Assembly (NCBI GenBank): GCA_964509675.1 | Contig: CAZDXC010000002.1 | Coordinates: 71,425 to 135,424, forward strand | Length of the DNA stretch: 64,000 nt | Source: Candidatus Woesearchaeota archaeon | GTDB lineage: Archaea > Nanobdellota > Nanobdellia > Pacearchaeales > GW2011-AR1 | Direction: 5' to 3' | In this document: positions 8,691 through 38,648 of the stretch, in pieces | How the letters are laid out: each line of letters starts with the position of its first letter | How positions within the stretch are numbered: the stretch's first letter is position 1 | Notes under the pieces: generated by a model | What the model was told of the DNA's origin: nothing | Databases searched by the model: none | What the model saw: the letters and a program-made list of their open reading frames with translations, nothing else | Program-made: the position numbers and the translations under genes

Positions 8691-10457
8691 ATGGAAATAT
8701 CTGATTATGTTGCCAATTTTATAGCAAATCAAAAGGTAAAACATATTTTTTTAATCACTGGTGGAGCTGTTTTTAATCTAGTTGATGCAATTGCAAGAAA
8801 TAATTCTTTAGAATATATCTGTACAGAACATGAACAAGCAGCAGCCATGGCTGCAGATGCATATTCAAGAGTAACTAAAAATTTGGGAGTGGCAGTATCA
8901 ACTAGTGGGCCAGGGGCGACCAATTTGATAACCGGTGTCTGTTGTTCTTGGTATGATTCAATTCCAACAATGTTTTTCTCGGGGCAAGTGTCTACTCCTA
9001 AATTGAAAGGGAAAAGTAAAATTAGACAATTTGGATTTCAAGAGACTGATGTTTCTTCTTTATTTAAGCCAATAACAAAGTATTCAAAAACTATAAAAGA
9101 TCCTCAGAAAATAAGATATGAATTAGAAAAAGCAAATTATCTCGCAAGAAATGGAAGACCCGGACCTATACTTCTTGATTTACCAAATGATATTCAAAGA
9201 GCAGAAATAAACCCAAAAGAGTTAATTGGATACCGCCCCCATAAAATTGAGAAGGATTTAAATAAATTAGAAGGATTAGTGGAAAAAACAACATATCTTT
9301 TAGAAAATTCAGAAAGGCCAATAATCATATTTGGAGGAGGAATAAGATTAGCAAATGTAGAATCTGAAGCGAGAGAATTGATAGAGAAATTAAATTTTCC
9401 AGCATTAATGACTTGGGCAACTAAAGATCTTTTTCCATATACTCATCCTCTTGTGATAGAAGGATTTGGTGTTTCTTCTGAAAGAACAGGAAATTTTGCA
9501 ATACAAAATTCAGATTTGGCATTGGCTTTAGGAACAAGATTAGATACTCATGAAACAAGTGACCTCACGACCTTTGCTCGTAATGCAAAGAAAATAATAG
9601 TAGATGTAGATAAATATGAATTAGAAAAATATGAAAAAAGGGGAATGAAGCCAGATTTATTGATAAACTGTGATCTTAGAGATTTTTTAAGAATTTTAAG
9701 TAAGAAGAATATAAAAATAAATAATATTTCTAAATGGATAAATAAGATTAATGAATGGAAGAAAAATTATCCTATTTGCCTTCCAGAATATTACAATCAA
9801 AAAGGAAATGTAAATCCTTATGTATTTATGGATGAACTATCAAAACAATCAAAAGAGGGAGATATTATAATTCCTGATGCTGGTGGGAACCTTACTTGGA
9901 CAATGCAAGGGTTCAGGGCAAAAAGGAACCAAAGACTTTTTTCTGCTTTTAATCATTCGCCAATGGGATATTCTCTTCCTGCAAGTATAGGTGCATGTTT
10001 TGCATCTGGGAAAAAATCAGTAACTTGTATTATTGGAGATGGAGGAATACAAATGAATATACATGAATTAGCGACTGCAAAACATCATAATCTCCCAATT
10101 AAAATCTTCCTATTCAATAATCAGGGTTATGGCATAATCCGTCAGACTCTTGAAAATTATATGAACTCAAGATATGAGGCAGTTGATGAAAAATCTGCAG
10201 TTCCAATGCCGAATTTAATAAGAATCGCAAATGCATATGGAATTCGTACTTTAAGCATAAAAGACAATAGGGAAATACAAAGGGGGGTAAAAGAAACTTT
10301 GAATTACAAAGGGGGGCCAATATTATGTGATGTAAACATTCATCCTTATCAAAAAATAGAGCCTAAATTAATCTCCAGCAGACCCTTGGAAGAATGTTCT
10401 CCAGAGCTTCCAAGAGAGGTTTTCTTAAAAGAGATGATTATTAAACCCCTTGGTTAA
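8691..10457 (+). CDS. Thiamine-pyrophosphate-dependent enzyme, acetolactate-synthase large-subunit-like
   Basis: N-terminal TPP-Pyr domain (ITGGAV...TSGPGATNLITG). C-terminal TPP-binding motif IGDGGIQMNIHELATA...NNQGYG. 588 aa with a central domain. Confidence 0.8.
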   Translation: MEISDYVANFIANQKVKHIFLITGGAVFNLVDAIARNNSLEYICTEHEQAAAMAADAYSRVTKNLGVAVSTSGPGATNLITGVCCSWYDSIPTMFFSGQVSTPKLKGKSKIRQFGFQETDVSSLFKPITKYSKTIKDPQKIRYELEKANYLARNGRPGPILLDLPNDIQRAEINPKELIGYRPHKIEKDLNKLEGLVEKTTYLLENSERPIIIFGGGIRLANVESEARELIEKLNFPALMTWATKDLFPYTHPLVIEGFGVSSERTGNFAIQNSDLALALGTRLDTHETSDLTTFARNAKKIIVDVDKYELEKYEKRGMKPDLLINCDLRDFLRILSKKNIKINNISKWINKINEWKKNYPICLPEYYNQKGNVNPYVFMDELSKQSKEGDIIIPDAGGNLTWTMQGFRAKRNQRLFSAFNHSPMGYSLPASIGACFASGKKSVTCIIGDGGIQMNIHELATAKHHNLPIKIFLFNNQGYGIIRQTLENYMNSRYEAVDEKSAVPMPNLIRIANAYGIRTLSIKDNREIQRGVKETLNYKGGPILCDVNIHPYQKIEPKLISSRPLEECSPELPREVFLKEMIIKPLG

Positions 10458-10465
10458 TTTAAGAA

Positions 10466-11938
10466 ATGGTAAGAGTGTTATTTATCACAAGAGGAGAAGA
10501 ACATTATCCTCCAATGGGAATTATGCAGATTTCTGCTACTGCAAAACAGGCTGGACATGAAACTTATTTAGCCTTATTATCAAAAGATAATGTATGGGAA
10601 AGGATAGAAGAAGTCCAGCCAAACGTAATTGCTTATTCTGGGTCAACAGGAGAACACAAAGATTACTTTGAATTTAATAAAAAACTTAAGGCTAAAAAAT
10701 CTAATATTATAACAATAATGGGCGGACCCCATGCTACCTTTTTTCCTGAAAATACTTTAGAAGATGCTAAACTTGATGCTGTTTGTATTGGAGAGGGAGA
10801 TTATGCCTTTCCGAATTTTTTAAATGTTGTAAGTGCAGGGGGGGATTTTTTGAATCTTAGAAATATAATGACACGTCCCAATAAAAGACCAGAATTATCT
10901 TCACTTATAAAAAATTTAGACTCTCTTCCCTTTGTAGATAGAGAATTATTTTATGGTTATGGAAAGGCTGGAAAAAATTCATTAAAACATTTTTTTGCTA
11001 CAAGGGGTTGTCCATTTAATTGTACTTATTGCTTTAACGAATCTTTTAGAAATATGTACCCTGGACAGAGATATGTAAGAAGAAGAAGTGTAGATTCTCT
11101 TTTAGAAGAAATTCAAGAGGTAAAAGAAAAATGGCCAATGCAATATATAAAATTTTATGATGATATTTTTGCTTTAAAAGTTGATGATTGGCTAAAAGAA
11201 TTTGCAGAAAAATATCCAAGAAAGATTGGATTGCCATTTTTTGCATTAGCCCGAGTTAATTTAGTTAATAAGGAAATGGTTGATTTATTTTATAAGGCAG
11301 GATGTAGAGCAATAAGCCTATCTATTGAATCTGCAAATCCAAGGATAAGAGAAGAGGTACTAAAAAGAAGGATGACCAATGATGAAATAAAAAATGCATA
11401 CAAATTATTTGGAGACAAAGGAATAGCGATACAAAGTAATAATATTCTTGGACTTCCAACCTCTACTATTGAAGATGATATTCAAACTGTTGATTTTAAT
11501 ATAGAATGCGGTCCGAAACAAGGAGCAATTGTAATGGCGGAATTTGGAACTGCACATCCTTATCCTGGAACAGTTCTTGGAGAATATTGCGAAAATAATG
11601 GGCTTTATGATACTCATAAGGGTTTCTTTGACATGCATCTTTCTTATCAAACAGAATCACCCTTAAATTGTTTTAGTCCTTTAGAAAAAATAATGCAAAG
11701 AAATCTCACTATGCTGGGTCCAATTGCTGTAAGATTTCCTTGGACTAGAAATTTAATAATCAATAATTTAATAAAAAAGCCCACAAATCCATTATACTTC
11801 ATTTTATTTAATATAAATAAAAGCACAGGATATATGAAACACATTTATAAAATAAAAAGGAGTTTTGGAGAATCTTTCGGAGTTATATATAAGAGTTTCA
11901 AGAAAAATTGGTTTAAGAGGATGGGAGAAAAGGTTTAG
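10466..11938 (+). CDS. Cobalamin-binding (class B) radical SAM enzyme
   Basis: N-terminal B12-binding-like Rossmann region (IMGGPHAT, GEGDYAF) followed by the ATRGCPFNCTYCFN CxxxCxxC cluster. Confidence 0.8.
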   Translation: MVRVLFITRGEEHYPPMGIMQISATAKQAGHETYLALLSKDNVWERIEEVQPNVIAYSGSTGEHKDYFEFNKKLKAKKSNIITIMGGPHATFFPENTLEDAKLDAVCIGEGDYAFPNFLNVVSAGGDFLNLRNIMTRPNKRPELSSLIKNLDSLPFVDRELFYGYGKAGKNSLKHFFATRGCPFNCTYCFNESFRNMYPGQRYVRRRSVDSLLEEIQEVKEKWPMQYIKFYDDIFALKVDDWLKEFAEKYPRKIGLPFFALARVNLVNKEMVDLFYKAGCRAISLSIESANPRIREEVLKRRMTNDEIKNAYKLFGDKGIAIQSNNILGLPTSTIEDDIQTVDFNIECGPKQGAIVMAEFGTAHPYPGTVLGEYCENNGLYDTHKGFFDMHLSYQTESPLNCFSPLEKIMQRNLTMLGPIAVRFPWTRNLIINNLIKKPTNPLYFILFNINKSTGYMKHIYKIKRSFGESFGVIYKSFKKNWFKRMGEKV

Positions 11939-28047: not shown

Positions 28048-28097
28048 AGATATTTCATTTAGATAATCTTTATAAATTTGTCTTATGAAGATATCTT

Positions 28098-28292
28098 ATG
28101 AAAAAATCTGCAAGGGAGTTAAAAAAGGGAGATAAGATATTAATAGCAAATCGAGAATATTTTGTAGAAGAATTAGAAATATCAGATATAGGAAAACACG
28201 GAATGAGAAAAGTAAGGATTGTTGCAATTTCCCCTCAACAGGAAAAAATAATCCTCATACGTCCTGAAGATTATCCCTTTGACTTCCTTTAA
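28098..28292 (+). CDS. aIF5A N-terminal-domain-like small protein (hypusine-loop GKHG motif). No C-terminal OB domain.
   Basis: KKGDKILIANREYFVEELEISDIGKHGMRKVRIVAIS aligns with the aIF5A N-domain LKVGQYVMIDG...DISVSKPGKHG.AK.R.V.I. The ORF ends where the GT2 gene starts. Confidence 0.45.
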   Translation: MKKSARELKKGDKILIANREYFVEELEISDIGKHGMRKVRIVAISPQQEKIILIRPEDYPFDFL

Positions 28293-29662: not shown

Positions 29663-31057
29663 ATGATAAAGAGGATATTACTAATAAAGCTTGGAGCAAA
29701 AGGAGATGTAATCAGAACTCTTCCTTTGTTAATAGCAATAAAAGAGAGGTATCCTGATTCTGAAATAACATGGATTACAAAACCTTTATGTAAGGAGATT
29801 TTAGAAACAAGTCCTTATATAAATAGAATTCTAACAATTCCAGTCAATTTAAAAAGATTTTCTGAAGATTTTGATATTTTATTAAACTTTGATGTGGAAG
29901 AAGATGCAACAAAATTAGCAGAAGAAATAAAAGCAAGAAAGAAATATGGGTTTTTTTCACATGGAGAGTATCCCACATCATTTAACCTTTCTGCAGAATA
30001 TTATCTTAACACTCTTTTTGATGATGAATTAAAAAAAACAAACACAAAAACTTACCAACAAATGATGTTTGAAGTAGCAGAACTTCCCTATAAAAAACAG
30101 CATCATCCCCTTTATCTAAACGAAGAAGATATGAAATACGCAGAAGATTTTGTAAATAAACATAATATTAATCCAAAAAAATTAATTGGGATTCATGTAG
30201 GTTCCTCTCCAAGATGGCCCTCTAAAACATGGCATTTGGATATTGTAAAAGAATTTATAAAAAGAGCAAAGGAAAAAGGATATGAAATTCTTATTTTTAG
30301 GGGACCAGATGAGTCCGAGAAACATGAAATACTTATCAGAGATTTAGAAAATCAGGGGGTTGGGGTTTTTACAAATAATCCATTAAATAGAGACAGAGAA
30401 TTTTTATCTCTGATAAATCTATGTGAGAAAATCATATGTGGAGATACCTTTGCATTGCATGTTGCTTTATCTCTTAAAAAACCGACAGTTGGATTATTTT
30501 TCTGTACTTCTCCTAATGAAATTGAAGATTATGGATTATTAAAAAAAATACTCTCTCCAAGATTATATGATTTTTTCCCTGAAAAACAAAATCTATACGA
30601 TGAAGATTTGACAAAAAGTATCTCTGTTGAACAAGTCCTAAATTCTATAGAAAATTTTGAGAAAACAAAAAGAGTAATCAACACCATCATAAAGGACAAT
30701 GATAAAGTTTTAGTTATCAAAAGAAAAAGCGGAATTCACTCAGGAAAATGGGCTTTTCCAGGCGGCATTATGAAAGATAGTGAGACTATCGGAGAAACAT
30801 TAAAAAGAGAAATAAAAGAGGAAACTAACCTTGATGTTTATAATATAATCAAAAAAATTTCAGACTATTCTTATTGGGGAAAGGAAGGAGAAAAAATCTT
30901 GGGGGAATGTTATCTTGTAAATGTAAAAAATGGAGAAGTAAAAATAAATAAAGAAGCAGAAGAATTTAGATGGGTTTCTTTAGAAGAATTTGGGAAATTA
31001 AATTATATAGAGGGACTGGATAAAGAAGTTTTTTTGGCCTTTTATAATAAACAATAA
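29663..31057 (+). CDS. GT9 ADP-heptose-type heptosyltransferase fused to a C-terminal NUDIX hydrolase domain
   Basis: N-terminal ILLIKLGAKGDVIRTLPLL (RfaC/RfaF-like GT9 start). C-terminal Nudix box GGIMKDSETIGETLKREIKEETNL (GX5EX7REUXEEXGU). Confidence 0.7.
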   Translation: MIKRILLIKLGAKGDVIRTLPLLIAIKERYPDSEITWITKPLCKEILETSPYINRILTIPVNLKRFSEDFDILLNFDVEEDATKLAEEIKARKKYGFFSHGEYPTSFNLSAEYYLNTLFDDELKKTNTKTYQQMMFEVAELPYKKQHHPLYLNEEDMKYAEDFVNKHNINPKKLIGIHVGSSPRWPSKTWHLDIVKEFIKRAKEKGYEILIFRGPDESEKHEILIRDLENQGVGVFTNNPLNRDREFLSLINLCEKIICGDTFALHVALSLKKPTVGLFFCTSPNEIEDYGLLKKILSPRLYDFFPEKQNLYDEDLTKSISVEQVLNSIENFEKTKRVINTIIKDNDKVLVIKRKSGIHSGKWAFPGGIMKDSETIGETLKREIKEETNLDVYNIIKKISDYSYWGKEGEKILGECYLVNVKNGEVKINKEAEEFRWVSLEEFGKLNYIEGLDKEVFLAFYNKQ

Positions 31058-31117: not shown

Positions 31118-32524
31118 ATGGAAAGATTATTGGAATTTTTAAAGGATTTTTCTAAAAAAAAGATACTTGTTATTGGGGATGTTATGTTAGATAAGACAAT
31201 TGTGGGGGATGTCTCAAGAATTTCACCTGAAGCCCCTATTCAAATAGTTAATGTAAGAGAAGAATTTTATGAACCAGGGGGGGCAGCAAATACTGCTGCA
31301 AATATTGCTTCTCTTGAAGGAAATGTTTCTTTGTTTGGATTTGTTGGAGAAGATTATAATGCAGAGGTTCTGTTAAAAATATTAAATAAAAAGAAAATCA
31401 GTTGTTTTTTTGATAAAAATCGCATAACCACCCTTAAGGAAAGAATAAGAGGAAGAAACCAACAGCTCTTGAGACTTGATTATGAAGAATCTTCCTTGAA
31501 AAATTTCAGTTTTGAAAATATGAGAAAACTTGAAAAAGAAATGGGACCTACGGATATAATTTTAATATCTGATTATGCAAAAGGAACTGTGACAGGAAAT
31601 TTAATGAATTTTTTGAAATCTTTTGATAAAAAAATTGTAATTGACCCCAAACCACAAAATATGTCTTTATATCGAGATGTTTTTTTAATTACTCCAAACG
31701 AAAAAGAAGCGTTGGAAATCACTTCCCAAAAGAATGTCTATATGGCTGGAAGAATTCTTAAGAAAAAATTTAATTGTAATGTTGTGGTTACAAGGGGGGA
31801 AAATGGAATGACTCTATTTTCAAATAATGAAATTGATATACCCACAACTGTAAGAGAAGTATATGATGTTGCTGGAGCAGGAGATACTGCTATTGCCGCA
31901 CTTTCTTTATCTTTGGCTTCAGGAGCTTCTCTTGAAGAAGCAGTTATTATAGCAAATCATGCAGCAGGTATATCAGTAAGAAAAGTTGGAACTTATCAGG
32001 TTAAATTGAGAGAATTAGAAAATGTGATTTTAGGAGAAGAAAGAAAATTAAAAACTATTGATGAATTATTTGAAATCATAAGAGAATTGAAGAAAAAACA
32101 AAAGAAAATAGTCTGGACAAATGGTTGTTTTGATCTTTTTCATGCAGGACACAAATATTCTCTTGAGCAAGCCAGAAAAAAAGGAGATATTTTAATTGTT
32201 GGTTTAGATTCAGATGAGTCTGTTCGGAAATTGAAGGGTTCTGAAAGACCAATATATAATCAAGAACAAAGAGTAGAGATTTTATCTGGAATGGAGTTTG
32301 TTAATTATATTACAATATTTCCTCCAGAGAAAGCATCAGAATATATTCAACTATTAAAACCAGATGTTTATGTTAAGTCTGGAAATTATACAATAGACTC
32401 AATAAACCAAAAAGAAAGAAAAATTATTGAAGAATATGGAGGAGAGATTTATCTTCCAAGAGGAATTTCAGAACTTTCCACGACGAATATAATAAATAAA
32501 ATAAAAAAACAAAATGGAATTTGA
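31118..32524 (+). CDS. hldE: Bifunctional D-beta-D-heptose 7-phosphate kinase / D-beta-D-heptose 1-phosphate adenylyltransferase
   Basis: N-terminal PfkB-type kinase (GGAANTA...DVAGAGDTAIAAL). C-terminal cytidylyltransferase-like domain (VWTNGCFDLFHAGH). Confidence 0.8.
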   Translation: MERLLEFLKDFSKKKILVIGDVMLDKTIVGDVSRISPEAPIQIVNVREEFYEPGGAANTAANIASLEGNVSLFGFVGEDYNAEVLLKILNKKKISCFFDKNRITTLKERIRGRNQQLLRLDYEESSLKNFSFENMRKLEKEMGPTDIILISDYAKGTVTGNLMNFLKSFDKKIVIDPKPQNMSLYRDVFLITPNEKEALEITSQKNVYMAGRILKKKFNCNVVVTRGENGMTLFSNNEIDIPTTVREVYDVAGAGDTAIAALSLSLASGASLEEAVIIANHAAGISVRKVGTYQVKLRELENVILGEERKLKTIDELFEIIRELKKKQKKIVWTNGCFDLFHAGHKYSLEQARKKGDILIVGLDSDESVRKLKGSERPIYNQEQRVEILSGMEFVNYITIFPPEKASEYIQLLKPDVYVKSGNYTIDSINQKERKIIEEYGGEIYLPRGISELSTTNIINKIKKQNGI

Positions 32525-33530
32525 TAGAAATAAATTAAATATTCTTCCTTTGAATTTTAGGGTAAACAAATCTTCTATAGAACAAATTGTAATAAGTCCT
32601 AATTCAAGATCTTATCCTTCACAAAATTCTAAATTAATTCATAAAATTGCAGAAACTATTCTCTTTGCAAGAAAAAACAACAAGCAGGTTATTTTGGCAT
32701 ATGGTGCCCATTTAATTAAAAATGGATTGGGTTTGGTTTTGAGAAGAATGATTGAAGAAGGTTTTGTTACCCATTTAGCTACTAATGGAGCCGGTTCTAT
32801 TCATGATTGGGAATTTGCATTCCAAGGAGGAACTGAAGAAGATGTTGAGAAATATATTAAAGAAGGGCAATTTGGAATCTGGGAAGAAACAGGACAATAT
32901 ATAAATTTAGCATTAATCTCGGGAGCTGAAAAAGGAATTGGCTATGGAGAATCTGTTTGTGAAATGATTCATAATGAAGAATTAGTAATTCCTGAAAATA
33001 AAAAAATACAAAAAATGAATATAAAGCCAGGAAAAATTGTCATAAAACATCCTTATAAAAAATATTCTGTCCAAGATTCAGCATGGGATAAGATCCCTTT
33101 TACAGTGCATCCTTCTTTTGGTTATGATATAATTTATACTCACCCTTTTAGTGATGGAGCATCAATAGGAAAATGTGCTGAAGTAGATTTTTTAAAATTT
33201 GTTAGCAGCATAAATAAATTGGAAGGCGGCATTTATCTTTCAATAGGTTCTTCAATAATGTCTCCTATGGTATTTGAAAAATCTTTATCTATGGCAAGAA
33301 ATTTGGCAAAACAAGAAAATAGAAAAATTGAAGATTTTACTATTGTTATAAATGATATTCAGAAAGGGGATTGGGATTGGAGTAAAAAGACTGAACCAGA
33401 AAAAAGCAATCCCGCATATTATTTACGTTTTTGCAAAACTTTCCATAGAATGGGTGCAAAAGAAATGTATTATGTAAGGGAAGACAATAGAAATTTTCTT
33501 TTATCTCTTTATCAAAATTTGAAAAAATAA
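32514..33530 (+). CDS. Deoxyhypusine-synthase-like (DHS-fold) protein
   Basis: ILAYGAHLIKNGLG...VTHLATNGAGSIHD aligns with the DHS core LGYTSNLISSGIRE...VTTAGGVEED. THPFSDGASIGK aligns with ALTDGSLGD. IVINDIQ aligns with VYINTAQ. Overlaps the hldE stop by 11 nt and ends 2 nt before gmhB. Confidence 0.45.
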   Translation: MEFDRNKLNILPLNFRVNKSSIEQIVISPNSRSYPSQNSKLIHKIAETILFARKNNKQVILAYGAHLIKNGLGLVLRRMIEEGFVTHLATNGAGSIHDWEFAFQGGTEEDVEKYIKEGQFGIWEETGQYINLALISGAEKGIGYGESVCEMIHNEELVIPENKKIQKMNIKPGKIVIKHPYKKYSVQDSAWDKIPFTVHPSFGYDIIYTHPFSDGASIGKCAEVDFLKFVSSINKLEGGIYLSIGSSIMSPMVFEKSLSMARNLAKQENRKIEDFTIVINDIQKGDWDWSKKTEPEKSNPAYYLRFCKTFHRMGAKEMYYVREDNRNFLLSLYQNLKK

Positions 33531-33531
33531 A

Positions 33532-34062
33532 ATGAAAAATAAAGCTATTTTCTTAGATAGAGATGGAACAATAAATGTTAATAAAGGATACATATATAGA
33601 GTAGGGGATTTAGAGATAATCCCCAAAGTTATAGAAGGATTGAAAATTCTTAGAGAGAATGGATATAAATTAATAATTGTGACTAATCAGTCAAAGATAG
33701 CAAGAGGATATTGTACAAAAGAAGATTACTTTAAATTTAGAGGGGAAATACATAAAAAATTAAGAGAACAGGGCATTATAATAACAGCAGAATATTTTTG
33801 TCCACACCACCCCCTTGATAATTGTAATTGCAGAAAACCAAAAACAGGCATGTTAGAGCGGGCTACAAAGGATTTTAATTTAGATATAAATGAATGCTGG
33901 ATGATAGGAGATAAAGATTCAGATATACTTGCAGGAAAAAATTCAGGATGTAGAACAATTCATGTTCTGACAGGAGAAGAAAAAAAACCCATAGATTATG
34001 CAGATTTTATAGCAAAAGATTTAATTAAAGCAGCAGATTATATCTTAAAACAAAAACAATAA
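33532..34062 (+). CDS. gmhB: D-glycero-D-manno-heptose 1,7-bisphosphate phosphatase (HAD family)
   Basis: AIFLDRDGTIN (HAD motif I). Zinc-binding CPHH...CNCRKPKTGM characteristic of GmhB. Confidence 0.8.
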   Translation: MKNKAIFLDRDGTINVNKGYIYRVGDLEIIPKVIEGLKILRENGYKLIIVTNQSKIARGYCTKEDYFKFRGEIHKKLREQGIIITAEYFCPHHPLDNCNCRKPKTGMLERATKDFNLDINECWMIGDKDSDILAGKNSGCRTIHVLTGEEKKPIDYADFIAKDLIKAADYILKQKQ

Positions 34063-34086: not shown

Positions 34087-35682
34087 GTGGAAGAAGTAAA
34101 AGGAGAATTAAAAGAACCTGAAAAAGAGATAGAAAAGAGAAAAAATTATATAAAGAAAAAACTTTTCTCCTGGATAAAAGATAATTATGATAAAATTTTC
34201 CTTGTTATTCTAATAGTTGCTTTTATTATAAGATTCCTTATTTTTCTTAAAACAATGAACCAGCCTCTTTGGTGGGATGAAGCAGATTATCTTTCAACTG
34301 CAAAAAAATGGGGGCTGGGATTACATATTAAAGATATTTGGTATTATAGAAGGGGATTTTTATGGCCATTAATAGGAGCCGCCTTTTTTGGAATAGGTAT
34401 GGGGGAAGTAGGAATGAGATTTCTTGTAGTTCTTTTATCAACCGGAACTGTGGCTCTTTCTTATTTTATAATTAGAAAAATGTTTGACAAAAAAACTGCC
34501 CTTTTAGTATCTATAGGAATTTTATTTTCTTGGGTTTCTTTATTTTTTACAGGAAGAGTACTGACAGATATTCCTGCAACTTTCTTTCTTTTATTTGCAT
34601 TGTTATTCTTCTGGAAAGGTTATGTCCTTAAAGAAGGAAATAAATTTTTATATCTTTTTGGAGTATTTTTTGCCCTCTCATTATTGACAAGATTTCAATT
34701 TGCAATGTTTGCATTACCTTTTCTTGTTTTTATATTTACAAGAGAAAAATTCAAATTTGTGAAGAATAAACACCTTTGGATAACACTTGGTTTGGCCTTT
34801 GCTGTTCTTCTTCCTTTTTTTGTTTTGTATTGGATGCATTATGGAAATATTGTTACTGATATCTTATCTCATTATTTTGGAGTCTCGGGAGTGTCTTCCA
34901 CTGAACCTGCTCAGAGAACCTTTTCTACAATATTCAATTATTTCAAAGATTTACCTTATATTCTTACTAAATCTATTTTTGTTCTATTTATTATAGGATT
35001 ATTTGTCTTCTTTCAGGATATGTTTCTAGGGATAGATAAAATTTTCAAAAATGAAGAAGTTCAAAAGAAATTTTTTATTTTTCTATGGATTATTGTTCCT
35101 TTCTTAGTTTTAGGATATATAACAGAATATGTAGAACACAGATATATTCTCTCAACTTTGCCTTTTTTATTTTTAGTTTCAATATCTCCATTAATAAAAT
35201 TTGGAGGCTTATTGAGTAGACACTATAAGAAAATTAATAAAAAAACAGCATATATCTTTTCAGCTATTTTATTTTTGTTTTTAATGATAGTAAGTTTTGG
35301 CAGTAGTATCCCTTCAAATTATTCATGGGGGAATAATTTAATAGCAAATAAATTAACTTCTTATTCAGAAGTACAACAGGCTGGATTATGGATGAAAGAG
35401 AATTCTAATACTACAGACATAATAATCTCTCAGTCAAGACCTCAAATAACTTATTATTCTGAAAGAACAACATATGATTTAACTCAAATGGGGCCAGAAT
35501 CTGCATTTCAAGAAAATTTATCGAGAATAAAGCCAAAATATCTTATGTTATCCAAATTTGAACCCCATCAGCAGTGGATGTACTCCTATCCTCAAGAGCA
35601 TAATAGCACTGTAATTCCTGTGAAGGTATATTATCAAAACCAACAGCCTGCTGCAATAATCTATCAATTCAAATATTCTTAA
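34087..35682 (+). CDS. GT-C fold glycosyltransferase (PMT/ArnT-like, GT39/GT83-type)
   Basis: 531 aa polytopic membrane protein with WWDEADY motif in the first extracytoplasmic loop, as in ArnT/PMT-family lipid-linked-sugar transferases. Confidence 0.65.
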   Translation: MEEVKGELKEPEKEIEKRKNYIKKKLFSWIKDNYDKIFLVILIVAFIIRFLIFLKTMNQPLWWDEADYLSTAKKWGLGLHIKDIWYYRRGFLWPLIGAAFFGIGMGEVGMRFLVVLLSTGTVALSYFIIRKMFDKKTALLVSIGILFSWVSLFFTGRVLTDIPATFFLLFALLFFWKGYVLKEGNKFLYLFGVFFALSLLTRFQFAMFALPFLVFIFTREKFKFVKNKHLWITLGLAFAVLLPFFVLYWMHYGNIVTDILSHYFGVSGVSSTEPAQRTFSTIFNYFKDLPYILTKSIFVLFIIGLFVFFQDMFLGIDKIFKNEEVQKKFFIFLWIIVPFLVLGYITEYVEHRYILSTLPFLFLVSISPLIKFGGLLSRHYKKINKKTAYIFSAILFLFLMIVSFGSSIPSNYSWGNNLIANKLTSYSEVQQAGLWMKENSNTTDIIISQSRPQITYYSERTTYDLTQMGPESAFQENLSRIKPKYLMLSKFEPHQQWMYSYPQEHNSTVIPVKVYYQNQQPAAIIYQFKYS

Positions 35683-36193
35683 ATTTAGAAATATAACTCA
35701 CTGTTAAAAAATTAATTTTTTTTAATTGCCTGAACTCTCCCTTTAAAATTTTCAAAATTTCCTTTAAATTAGTAATATGGTCATTAACTCTTTCATTTTT
35801 TCCTAATATTCTTCTTACTTTTCTAGAAATCCAATTTTCCGTCGGAATAGATGTTATGAGCTCAAAATCAGGATTCATTTTTTTAAAGTTATTTATTATT
35901 TTTTTAATTTCTTTTATTGGGATATGTTCAAAAACATCCATCACAAATATTTTATTTGGTTTTAATAGAGTATAATTTTTTATATCGCTATGTTCGGGGG
36001 TTATATCATATCCAATAATTGTATAGCCTTTTTTTTTCAGATTATTTTTCATCCATCCTGCGCCACATCCAAAATCCAAGATAATATCTGTTTTTTTTAA
36101 ATTGGCAATTTTTAAAGCAATTTTTATTTTGCTTCTACTGAAAAATCTTACTAATGGATTTTTGTTTGAATAAGTGGAAGATATGTTATCCAT
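35669..36193 (-). CDS. Class I SAM-dependent methyltransferase
   Basis: ILDFGCGAGW motif I. VFMDVFEHI. Confidence 0.7.
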   Translation of the reverse strand: MDNISSTYSNKNPLVRFFSRSKIKIALKIANLKKTDIILDFGCGAGWMKNNLKKKGYTIIGYDITPEHSDIKNYTLLKPNKIFVMDVFEHIPIKEIKKIINNFKKMNPDFELITSIPTENWISRKVRRILGKNERVNDHITNLKEILKILKGEFRQLKKINFLTVSYISKFKNI

Positions 36194-37197
36194 TATAAGT
36201 ATCCTTTTTCTTTATAATAGTTCACTGTTCTTTTTATTCCTTCTTCCAAGGAAAAAATTGGTCTATAACTTAATTCTTTTTCTGCTTTTGAAATATCACT
36301 ATACCAAAATTTTTCAGTCATCCATTTAATTGTATCATGTTTAAATGGAGGATGAAAGTTTAGTATTTTTCCTAAGAATTCTAGGAGATATCCTCCAGAA
36401 ATAAAAACAAATTTAGGAAATTTTATAAATAAAATTTTTTTATTTTCTGCTTTTTCCATAGCTTTAATTATTTGATTAATGCTGTAATGCTCTCCATTTG
36501 AAATATTGTATTTTCCCCCCACTTTTCCTTTCTTAATTGCTAATAAGCAGGCTTCAATTAAATTTTTAACATATAAAAATTCCATTCCTTTTATATTGCT
36601 TCTTATTGGAAAAAATCTTTTATTTACAGTCAAGAATAATTTCAGCATTTCAAAATCTCTCTCTCCAAAAACCATGGAAGGACGTAGTATAACAATCGGC
36701 ATTTTATATTTATTAAAATATTCCATTGCAATTTTTTCTTGAGCTAATTTGCTCCAACCATATATATCTACTGGCCTGCATTCTGTTTCTTCATTTACAG
36801 GGATTTCATCTCTTGTTGGTCCTACAGCAGAAATACTACTCATTATAATTATCTTTTTTATTTTTTTATTCTTACATGATTCTAAAAGATTTTTTGTTCC
36901 TTCCTCATTTATTTTAAAATATAAATCATTAGGAATAGTCATAGGTCTTGCAATTGCAGCCAAGTGAAAAATCACATCAATATTTTTAACAGCATCTTTC
37001 AATGAGCGTTTATCTAATAAATCTCCTTCAATGATTTCTATATTTAATCTTTTTAATAATTCTAACGAATCTCGCCTTTTTTCAGATCTTTTCTTTTCTT
37101 TTCTGACCAAAACCTTAATTTTATTTTTTTCTTTTGCAAGTCGTTCTACTAAATGACTTCCAATAAGCCCTGTTGCTCCTGTAACAAAAACTTTCAT
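36193..37197 (-). CDS. NAD-dependent epimerase/dehydratase (SDR)
   Basis: MKVFVTGATGLIGSHLVERL Rossmann motif. YGWSK (YxxxK). Start at MKV, giving a 4-nt overlap with the upstream radical SAM gene. Confidence 0.8.
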   Translation of the reverse strand: MKVFVTGATGLIGSHLVERLAKEKNKIKVLVRKEKKRSEKRRDSLELLKRLNIEIIEGDLLDKRSLKDAVKNIDVIFHLAAIARPMTIPNDLYFKINEEGTKNLLESCKNKKIKKIIIMSSISAVGPTRDEIPVNEETECRPVDIYGWSKLAQEKIAMEYFNKYKMPIVILRPSMVFGERDFEMLKLFLTVNKRFFPIRSNIKGMEFLYVKNLIEACLLAIKKGKVGGKYNISNGEHYSINQIIKAMEKAENKKILFIKFPKFVFISGGYLLEFLGKILNFHPPFKHDTIKWMTEKFWYSDISKAEKELSYRPIFSLEEGIKRTVNYYKEKGYL

Positions 37198-38648
37198 GGT
37201 AAAATAGGAGAAAAAATCCAAGCGATATAAGCAGCTATTTTTCTCATAGTTTTATTTTTCACCAACAATTTTGCAAAATTTTCTGTTAAAAAAAATGCAA
37301 GAATTTTTTCTATTTTTGGATAATCTTTTCTTTTTTTTGAATTTTTGCAGCTCCAGACATGTCCCAGTTGAGTCAAAAAAATCATCTCTCTATCAGAATA
37401 ATTTTTGGTATATAAAGGAGCATTTCCTGTTTTTGGATTGATATAATAAAGCCATAAATAATCATTAATCAGGCCTTCCTTTTTAGCAATATCATAAACA
37501 GTAGTTCCTGGGTAAATTGTCAAGGCATTAATTCCTATCCAGTCTGGTTTTGTTTCTCTTATCAATTCAAAAGTTTTCCATGTATCTTCTGCTTCCTCTT
37601 CAAGCGAGCCTACAATTAAAAAGAATTTTAATTCAATTTCTGCCTTTTTAGTCATTTCAGAAGCTTTTTTTATCTTTTCAATTGTAATATTTTTTCCAAT
37701 AGCTCTTAAAACTTTGTCTGAGCCAGATTCAGCGCCATATTCAATTAAATCACACCCTGCTTTTTTCAATATCTTTAGCATTTCTTCATCAACTGTGTCT
37801 ACTCTTGCCTGTATTCTAAATTTAATGGGAAGTTTATTTTTTATTACTAATTCACAAAATTTTATTACCTTCTCTTTTTTCAATGTGAATAAATCATCAG
37901 CAAATCTTATATAATCTATTCCATATTCTTGGTTCAATTCTTTTACTTGCTTAAATAATTTTTCAGCAGAGGTGCTTCTTACCTTTCTTCCCCAAGCAAG
38001 CGTAGTTTCACAAAATTTGCAACCCATAGGACATCCCCTTGAAGTTGTTACAAGTGTTGTTTGTTTTACATTTTTGACATCTGGAGGTAAGGGATATTCT
38101 TTCATAGGGAATAAATCATAAGCAGGAAGAGGAAGATTTTCTATATTTTCCATAAAACATCTTGGAGGATTAATTTTTATTTTTCCTTTTTCCCTAAAAG
38201 ATATTCCTAAAATCTTATTAATTTTTTTTTTATTTTTTATTGCCTTGATCAATTCATACAGAGTCTCTTCCCCTTCCCCCCTAACAACAATGTCAACAAA
38301 ATTGTAATTTTTTAACAGAAGACTATCTAAAAAAGTAGCATGCAATCCTCCAATTATCGTAATAATATCTGAATTTCTTTTTTTTATTTCTTCTAATGTT
38401 TTTAAGGCAGAATATCTATTTTCAGTTAAGCAGCTTACTCCAACTATTTTTGCTCTGGTTCTGATAGATTCACTTGCAGTTTTTTCAAAATTCCATCCTT
38501 TTATTGGAGCATCTATCACTTGAGATGATATTTCTCTCTCTCTTAAATAAGCTGCTAAACAAGCAATTCCCAATGGAACTCCTGACATGGGAAACTTACT
38601 GGTTGTTTTTTTATCTAAGGGGGGGTTAATTAAACAAATATCATTCAT
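37194..38648 (-). CDS. Cobalamin-binding (class B) radical SAM enzyme
   Basis: IIGGLHAT / VRGEGEET B12-like region. TSRGCPMGCKFCET cluster. Confidence 0.8.
   Translation of the reverse strand: MNDICLINPPLDKKTTSKFPMSGVPLGIACLAAYLREREISSQVIDAPIKGWNFEKTASESIRTRAKIVGVSCLTENRYSALKTLEEIKKRNSDIITIIGGLHATFLDSLLLKNYNFVDIVVRGEGEETLYELIKAIKNKKKINKILGISFREKGKIKINPPRCFMENIENLPLPAYDLFPMKEYPLPPDVKNVKQTTLVTTSRGCPMGCKFCETTLAWGRKVRSTSAEKLFKQVKELNQEYGIDYIRFADDLFTLKKEKVIKFCELVIKNKLPIKFRIQARVDTVDEEMLKILKKAGCDLIEYGAESGSDKVLRAIGKNITIEKIKKASEMTKKAEIELKFFLIVGSLEEEAEDTWKTFELIRETKPDWIGINALTIYPGTTVYDIAKKEGLINDYLWLYYINPKTGNAPLYTKNYSDREMIFLTQLGHVWSCKNSKKRKDYPKIEKILAFFLTENFAKLLVKNKTMRKIAAYIAWIFSPILP

Follow-up and report, generated by a model that had tools for sequence, protein, structure and literature searches.

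We analysed a stretch of 64,000 nucleotides (nt) from assembly GCA_964509675.1, a Candidatus Woesearchaeota archaeon (contig CAZDXC010000002.1, positions 71,425 to 135,424 of the forward strand), referred to here as the window, and followed up one gene within it, at 32514..33530 on the plus strand. The organism is a DPANN archaeon whose assembly of 550 kb in 5 contigs is 92% complete, and the window as a whole is a glycan-biosynthesis island. A sequence-only reading had likened the product of this gene to deoxyhypusine synthase (DHS) and had placed the gene within a heptose operon. We found the protein to be a new member, from an archaeon, of a family that is catalogued but uncharacterised, the GSU2086 family, whose genes keep company with those of heptose-phosphate metabolism and whose members may act there as epimerase-type enzymes. 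Genomes that carry a family gene are called GSU2086-positive below. The genes of the plus-strand run are the following.

29663..31057, plus strand: fusion of a GT9 heptosyltransferase with a NUDIX hydrolase, first gene of the operon (PF01075 65.6 bits; PF00293 67 bits)
31118..32524, plus strand: HldE, a fusion of heptose-7-phosphate kinase and heptose-1-phosphate adenylyltransferase (NF008454 426.5 bits; TIGR02198 317; TIGR02199 160.8; Pfam PfkB and CTP_transf_like)
32514..33530, plus strand: GSU2086-family protein of 338 amino acids (aa), ATG start, with a modelled DHS / ornithine-cyclodeaminase fold (NF052581 320.2 bits)
33532..34062, plus strand: GmhB, heptose-1,7-bisphosphate 7-phosphatase, HAD-IIIA (NF006506 170.9 bits, cut-off 178; TIGR01656 149.8 bits)
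34087..35682, plus strand: PMT_2 / ArnT-like GT-C membrane glycosyltransferase, with which the run ends (PF13231 49.1 bits)

The 338-aa open reading frame was confirmed, as was its 11-nt overlap with hldE, which ends at 32524. The gap to gmhB had been read as 2 nt and is 1 nt, the stop codon ending at 33530 and gmhB starting at 33532. HldE is present as the sole copy in this genome. The ADP-heptose pathway to which these enzymes belong is a textbook route of four or five enzymes, the intermediates of which also serve as innate-immune signals. The window gene is co-transcribed with the HldE, GmhB, GT9 and GT-C genes, and its place in this one operon means that it therefore takes part in making surface-glycan heptose.

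The window protein matched the NCBIfam model NF052581 ('GSU2086 family protein') well above the curated cut-off of 250 bits, with residues 2-334 covering model positions 1-300/301, while Pfam returned only sub-threshold matches at residues 44-105 (ArgZ-like_C_2nd 22.6 and DS 18.6 bits, cut-off 27 each). The family is represented by more than 7000 near-length matches among 8000 scored candidates, and by 1812 representative clusters at 50% identity. A search of the ESM Atlas brought back only the family's own unnamed clusters. Residue conservation was computed on an alignment of 40 sequences covering both deep subfamilies of the family. Twelve residues are invariant (G64, H66, D98, E100, E109, G118, G121, G203, G219, D225, N263 and D281) and 25 are near-invariant, including R16, H87, H97, D205, K256, Y302, R305 and K308. 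Since the window protein retains all 12 of the former and all 25 of the latter, it resembles an active enzyme, or at least looks like one to judge from its residues. In the family tree the two deep subfamilies are separated with a branch support of 100 and both occur in DPANN heptose operons; at least 5 label changes were required to account for the archaeal sequences. Two subfamilies and repeated label changes together imply that the link between the family and the heptose operon arose more than once. The window protein falls within the deep subfamily that also contains bacterial forms linked to a kinase-phosphatase.

Family members were found in 8 of 401 DPANN genomes, and all 8 of these encode a heptose kinase. 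In 7 of the 8 the gene lies inside an ADP-heptose operon, at a position that varies. Besides the window, the gene orders were as follows, with NT standing for nucleotidyltransferase and PMT2 for the PMT_2-type gene.

G268: GT9, kinase, NT, GSU2086-family gene, PMT2
G433: GT9, NUDIX, kinase, GmhB-NT, GSU2086-family gene
G356: GmhA, GSU2086-family gene, kinase, GmhB, NT
G397: GSU2086-family gene, kinase-GmhA, GmhB-NT
G132: kinase-GmhA, GSU2086-family gene, kinase 2, NT-GmhB, transketolase
G147: kinase-GmhA, NT-GmhB, GSU2086-family gene, kinase 2

In G268 and G433, too, the operon thus begins with a GT9 gene. Of the metagenomic relatives, the two closest (64% identity) keep the orders NT, GSU2086-family gene and GSU2086-family gene, GmhB, PMT2; the latter order recurs in metagenome contig L124, and the family gene directly followed by PMT2 recurs in G268. 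In G132 (L091:6639-11211) and G147 (L092:5742-10177) there are two heptose-7-phosphate kinase genes, of which the first carries a GmhA fusion and the other stands by itself next to the family gene, and an adenylyltransferase-GmhB fusion is present as well. The G132 operon continues with a transketolase N-terminal gene, a possible source of sedoheptulose-7-phosphate. These results show that the GSU2086-family protein is an optional fifth member of heptose-phosphate pathways.

The same association was seen in gene fusions, which link the family to each of the other enzyme types of the pathway. Family proteins are fused to an HldC-type adenylyltransferase (P0119, P0135, P0040), to a GmhB-like HAD domain (P0086, P0170), to a PfkB-HAD pair (P0122) and to a DUF89 phosphatase plus HldC-type adenylyltransferase (P0129, P0255). 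We also examined 80 GTDB loci, those nearest to the window protein at 43-57% identity. Almost all are bacterial and come from Bacteroidota, Spirochaetota, Verrucomicrobiota/Lentisphaerae, Planctomycetota, KSB1, Calditrichota, Hydrogenedentota, Acidobacteriota and Nitrospirota. In 48 of the 80 there is a gene for a PfkB kinase that matched domain I of HldE best (134 bits), mostly fused to a HAD domain and mostly directly upstream of the family gene, and a GmhA-like SIS gene (164 bits to phosphoheptose isomerase) in at least 23. Further genes of these loci encode ROK kinases, GH38/GH92 alpha-mannosidases, an AGE-type epimerase, SSF/MFS transporters, LacI, GFO oxidoreductases and 3-keto-disaccharide hydrolases. 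These bacterial loci look catabolic, and no nucleotidyltransferase is among their genes. A recurrent order in Bacteroidota (L013, L014, L029, L038, L059 and similar loci, with the family gene at about 10001-11092) is ROK, GmhA-like SIS, GH38/GH92, PfkB-HAD, GSU2086-family gene, AGE epimerase, SSF transporter and 3-keto-disaccharide hydrolase, an arrangement like that of a sugar-utilisation locus with a nucleotide-free heptose-phosphate module at its core.

The namesake of NF052581, GSU2086 of Geobacter sulfurreducens, also lies beside hldE; the window copy, a full-length match to the family model with the same invariant residues, differs in being archaeal and in having gmhB on its other side, in an operon with GT9 and GT-C transferases. 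The order in G. sulfurreducens is hldE (GSU2085), GSU2086, gmhA (GSU2087), and transposon sequencing (Tn-seq) gave the same electrode-growth defect for all three genes (PMC5585712). Literature searches on the family with heptose and on archaeal hldE, gmhA or gmhB returned nothing relevant beyond this Tn-seq table.

An AlphaFold model of the window protein, built on the 40-sequence family alignment, reached a pLDDT of 95.6 and a pTM of 0.93 and was compared with solved structures by Foldseek and by an all-against-all structural search. The top fold match was the ornithine-cyclodeaminase domain of AgrE/ArgZ (6lrf, Z 18.1, 212 residues aligned), followed by DHS (8put, Z 17.2, 259 residues aligned) and the LOR/SDH-like protein 3c2q (Z 17.2). 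For these relatives Foldseek gave a probability of 1.0 and E values from 5e-8 to 1e-5, and sirtuins (about Z 11) and the middle domains of thiamine diphosphate (ThDP) enzymes scored well below them. As modelled, the protein is thus a putative single-domain enzyme with the dinucleotide-cofactor fold common to DHS and the AgrE/ArgZ-type cyclodeaminases. The C-terminal domain of AgrE/ArgZ (6lrf, 6lrg, 6juy; PF21570) shares the G-x-x-[IL]-x-x-G and NA/G-x-x-HDxE motifs with the window protein, and the LOR/SDH-like proteins of TIGR00300, to which 3c2q belongs and which are now named nickel-pincer-dependent ornithine cyclodeaminases, are fold relatives too. Unlike either group, the GSU2086 family has sugar-phosphate enzymes as its partners, with no context of amino-acid metabolism, and H66 and other invariant residues are particular to it.

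At the level of sequence the likeness to DHS was much fainter. A search of solved structures matched only residues ~39-112, with ArgZ/AgrE first (E 2e-6) and DHS last (E 0.15). Profile scores for the window protein were 20.7 bits with TIGR00321 (DHS; cut-off 304.25), 18.6 bits with PF01916 (DS; cut-off 27, residues 51-105 only), 22.6 bits with PF21570 (cut-off 27) and 19.4 bits with TIGR00300 (cut-off 410.8). Aligned by hhalign, profile against profile, the family and 30 DPANN DHS sequences matched over 252 columns (E 5e-4). In this alignment GAH66 stands opposite TSN, VINDIQ opposite YITTAQ, and the invariant E109 opposite the glutamate of the DHS 'EED' motif, which is an NAD-site residue of DHS. 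This glutamate and the HDxE motif common to ArgZ are the conserved motif features of a putative dinucleotide site. Two of the DHS pairings that had been made by eye hold up in this alignment (GAHLIKNG...NGAG with TSN...TTAGG, and VINDIQ with YINTAQ), and the third, SDGASIGK with TDGSLGD, does not, for the DHS motif faces HPSFGYD at residues 199-205. DHS and the window protein align in the nucleotide-loop motifs near the N-terminus and in the '[IV]N[DT][IA]Q' strand. Two DHS motifs are not retained: against the 30 DHS sequences, the EAxSWGK lysine faces R312 of the window protein, four residues downstream of the conserved K308, which might be its structural counterpart, and the GGG-x-x-K-H motif faces GSSIMSP. 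When the family alignment was set against the genome's own DHS as a single sequence, hhalign returned just 51 columns at 2% probability. The proposed likeness to DHS is thus real but remote, being right at the level of the fold and sub-threshold in the profiles.

We next considered the cofactor. The AgrE relative binds NAD+, according to the title of PDB entry 6lrg, and the TIGR00300 cyclodeaminases use a nickel-pincer adenine dinucleotide, as far as Desguin 2025 is cited in PMC13524815. LarC, a gene of nickel-pincer cofactor synthesis, was found in 1 of 201 DPANN genomes, G132, which is GSU2086-positive, and also in the GSU2086-positive G356 and in the GSU2086-positive 1-Mb archaeal metagenome-assembled genome (MAG) behind L011. 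Neither G132 nor G356 has LarA or a TIGR00300 protein. In G132 the genes form a larE-larB-methyltransferase-larC operon, which, together with a 228-aa gene of no assigned kind, lies directly beside the canonical DHS gene (L228:6652-12209; G132:C6 ~50.6-56.2 kb); this could be chance, or another DHS-fold protein could be using the nickel cofactor. LarC was present in 37 of 50 mostly bacterial GSU2086-positive genomes and in 21 of 141 genomes sampled from the order Bacteroidales, in which the family itself occurs in 3 of 141. It was present in 12 of 14 Bacteroidia-labelled GSU2086-positive genomes, compared with 20 of 138 GSU2086-negative genomes (Fisher P = 8e-8, uncorrected for relatedness). 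At the level of the family, co-occurrence with LarC is strong.

LarB, LarC and LarE are absent from the 92% complete genome of the window archaeon (no match to PF01969; 17-22 bits with TIGR00268; nothing at E 0.01 by tblastn with G132 LarB/C/E), and no LarC was found in G268 or G433, whose family proteins are of the same subfamily. Two motifs near the presumed active site differ between clades: in the window's clade motif 1 reads HP[SG]FGYD and motif 2 V[IV]NDIQ, against HPM[FI]GHD and VVDLA in the LarC-rich bacterial clade. The window clade has S95, S/G201, Y204, N280 and Q283, and the LarC-rich clade I/V95, M201, H204, V280 and A283 (nt ~32796-33362; residues 95, 198-204 and 275-283), substitutions within motifs that are conserved otherwise. 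When alignment columns were compared with LarC status, the best column (P 4e-4) was not significant after multiple testing and was confounded by clade, giving no clean cofactor signature. The LarA-type and NphT-type nickel-pincer enzymes, which use a cofactor derived from nicotinic acid to shuttle hydride in racemisation, epimerisation or sugar redox (PMC13524815), are possible mechanistic analogues, given the co-occurrence of the family with LarC at genome level; they differ from it in fold and in that the window archaeon has no Lar genes.

Taken together, the tentative explanation that we favour, though at somewhat less than even confidence, is that the GSU2086-family protein is a redox-neutral, hydride-shuttling enzyme of the epimerase type whose substrate is a heptose phosphate. 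As in its fold relatives, a nicotinamide-type cofactor, tightly bound, would accept the hydride transiently. In place of an amine the enzyme would oxidise and then re-reduce a secondary alcohol of the heptose phosphate, and the product would be an epimer. Candidate substrates are heptose-7-phosphate and heptose-1,7-bisphosphate, that is, those around the kinase and phosphatase steps. The cofactor could be NAD(P)+ or a nickel-pincer nucleotide; since the window archaeon lacks LarB, LarC and LarE, it would there be NAD(P)+ or a cofactor obtained from a host. The enzyme would fill the tailoring slot that is occupied in other DPANN heptose operons by HldD, the short-chain dehydrogenase/reductase (SDR) epimerase, which itself works by transient oxidation. 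The two would be functional analogues at most: both take the same optional place beside the heptose kinase in DPANN operons, and HldD (TIGR02197) differs in its unrelated SDR fold and in acting on ADP-heptose, whereas the GSU2086 family is also found where no ADP-heptose can form.

The distribution of HldD is consistent with this in DPANN archaea. With thresholds of at least 207 bits for heptose-7-phosphate kinase and at least 210 bits for HldD-like proteins, 46 genomes of the 201-genome DPANN phylum sample were kinase-positive; 4 of these were GSU2086-positive, 17 had an HldD-like gene, and 25 had neither. Nine of the 17 HldD-like genes lie within 1.5 kb of the kinase gene. When 4 more genomes from the 401-genome sample are included, HldD-like genes occur in 0 of 8 GSU2086-positive and in 17 of 42 GSU2086-negative kinase-positive genomes (one-sided Fisher P = 0.026), an exclusivity that is suggestive only, with 8 genomes and a P value that ignores relatedness. 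The top HldD-like scores in the GSU2086-positive genomes were at most 128 bits where measured. In the window archaeon the top HldD-like matches are other genes, at 104-116 bits (TIGR02197 cut-off 274.6), and the window protein is no SDR.

In bacteria the picture is different. A true HldD (at least 350 bits) was found in 9 of the 50 mostly bacterial GSU2086-positive genomes, always with HldC, and this rules out strict replacement of HldD as a general rule. An HldC-type transferase (E 1e-20) was lacking in 21 of the 50 (MAGs of uncertain completeness), which makes action on ADP-heptose unlikely as a general rule. Because the family occurs without HldC and alongside HldD, ADP-heptose is not needed and HldD is not strictly replaced; the substrate is most likely a heptose phosphate. 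An interconversion of heptose-phosphate stereoisomers, anabolic in some operons and catabolic in others, would fit both the HldC-free genomes and those in which HldD coexists.

These bacterial genomes, with and without HldD and HldC, tell against an epimerase that substitutes for HldD, and several further observations weigh on the same side, as do the small numbers behind the DPANN exclusivity. Neither gene is present in 25 kinase-positive DPANN genomes. The strong LarC association clashes with the lack of Lar genes in the window archaeon. Similarity to the NAD-binding relatives is significant only at residues ~39-112, NAD binding itself being presumed, and for every member of the family we infer the substrate, the carbon position and the cofactor. 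The Geobacter phenotype of GSU2086 could be a polar effect on gmhA. We also looked for a dedicated lineage of kinases linked to the family and saw no sign of one in the kinase tree, where these kinases do not group together (6 changes, a number as low in 95 of 500 shuffles). Finally, an HpnA-like SDR is encoded at 36193-37221 on the minus strand (TIGR03466 170 bits, heptose_epim only 116 bits), in a tailoring operon of the opposite strand, at a distance of 2.6 kb from gmhB. No other gene of the genome scores higher as HldD-like, its substrate could be a nucleotide sugar, and the epimerase role could be its own instead.

A more specific form of the epimerase reading, which we regard as unlikely, makes the GSU2086 family a nickel-pincer (or NAD) dependent heptose-phosphate epimerase that acts at the sugar-phosphate level and leads, independently of HldD, to an alternative stereoisomer of heptose. 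Its role would be anabolic in the archaeal glycan and in Geobacter lipopolysaccharide (LPS), and catabolic in the bacterial loci. The window archaeon, host-dependent and having no cofactor genes, would either import the nickel cofactor or belong to a clade (M201->S/G, H204->Y, V280->N, A283->Q) that has reverted to NAD(P)+. If true, glycan biosynthesis would gain its first nickel-pincer enzyme.

The same type of cofactor could also serve hidden-redox chemistry that does not epimerise, such as dehydration of the heptose phosphate to a deoxy-heptose, a rearrangement (aldose-ketose or of the ring) or an amination by way of a keto intermediate. The fold relatives do turn transient oxidation to varied ends (transfer in DHS, cyclisation and deamination in AgrE), bacterial family members stand in loci of catabolic appearance that hold GH38, GH92, AGE-type epimerase, ROK, SSF and LacI genes and no nucleotidyltransferase, and the second heptose kinase of G132 and G147 lies beside the family gene as if an altered substrate required a kinase of its own. 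However, in the operons of archaea and Geobacter the product still has to be accepted by GmhB, by the adenylyltransferase and by GT9, which favours a conservative change, and no partner for deoxygenation or amination is conserved beside the gene. We consider such chemistry doubtful.

It is improbable that the protein serves in housekeeping or proofreading, where it would recycle or repair side-products or heptose phosphates that are damaged or of the wrong anomer. Enzymes of repair are rarely both embedded in a pathway and fused to all of its steps, the Geobacter transposon mutants are as defective as hldE mutants, and the non-co-occurrence with HldD in DPANN archaea would be left unexplained. 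Such a role would suit the fusions to ARMT1/DUF89 'damage-control phosphatase' (P0129, P0255), the optional presence in 4 of 46 kinase-positive DPANN genomes, and the occurrence alongside a full canonical pathway, HldD included, in 9 bacterial genomes.

There is also a slim chance that the protein has lost catalysis and that its former NAD pocket holds ADP-heptose or a heptose bisphosphate, making it a sensor, scaffold or regulator. ADP-heptose resembles the ADP-ribose-type ligands of the fold superfamily (sirtuins score about Z 11), and one helix-turn-helix (HTH)-fused member was found among the representative matches (P0126). Yet the invariant positions (12) and the near-invariant ones (25) abound in His, Asp, Glu, Lys and Arg and are kept across two deep subfamilies, as is typical of an active site, 21 of 50 GSU2086-positive genomes have no ADP-heptose-forming transferase, and the co-occurrence with LarC, a cofactor-synthesis gene, points to catalysis.

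The sequence-only reading had offered two further roles, that of the organism's genuine DHS and that of a stand-in for GmhA. A canonical DHS is encoded elsewhere in the genome (G000:C3:119160-119996; PF01916 322 bits; TIGR00321 308 bits, cut-off 304), and a full-length aIF5A (~127 aa, with the SKTGKHGHSKARV loop) lies 11 kb past the end of the window (G000:C2:146813-147202, minus strand). As a core gene, DHS was present in 40 of 41 sampled DPANN genomes, compared with 8 of 401 for the GSU2086 family. The absence of gmhA from the window stands, and the gene was located on another contig, C5 (TIGR00441 208.5 bits, cut-off 209.45). The window protein had no match to SIS profiles, and its likeness to the GmhA fold was generic only (Z 8-9, root-mean-square deviation at least 6 Å). 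The family gene and gmhA are moreover neighbours or operon mates in G356, G132, G147, G397 and Geobacter (GSU2085-2087). With a canonical DHS, aIF5A and gmhA all elsewhere, DHS profile scores far under their cut-offs and neither the SWGK lysine nor the GGG-KH motif retained, both roles are refuted, and it is extremely improbable that the protein is the organism's DHS, a polyamine aminobutyl transferase or a GmhA replacement, for all its DHS-like fold and N-terminal motifs. What survives of the earlier proposal is a DHS-fold enzyme recruited to sugar metabolism, borne out by the family, its fusions and its conserved archaeal and bacterial context; nothing points to aminobutyl or alkyl-amine transfer.

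The GSU2086 family is very large and spans many bacterial phyla, with two separate archaeal acquisitions, and fusion and gene order tie it to the heptose pathway. Its reaction, once found, would add a step or a branch to heptose metabolism and would explain heptose modules that have no nucleotide activation. If the LarC link is causal, nickel-pincer catalysis would extend to sugar phosphates. For the window archaeon, the gene suggests that an operon of bacterial type supplies the surface glycan with a tailored heptose.

Some further features were recorded at these loci. A mini-ORF at 28089-28292 on the plus strand of the window (64-67 aa) carries a GKHG loop (ISDIGKHGMRKVRIV) and no OB domain. 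In KSB1, Cytophagia and Zhuqueibacterota relatives that are nested in the archaeal clade (L008:8583-9857, L009:5027-6301, L010:8410-9819), a URO-D/MtaA-like protein of 424-469 aa precedes the GSU2086-family gene, which is followed by a stand-alone PfkB gene and by two unannotated proteins of ~305-360 aa. The counterpart in G268 of the GT9-NUDIX fusion at 29663-31057 is a plain GT9 with no NUDIX domain (L224:4768-5742), and in G433 GT9 and NUDIX are separate, adjoining genes (L225:8585-10059).

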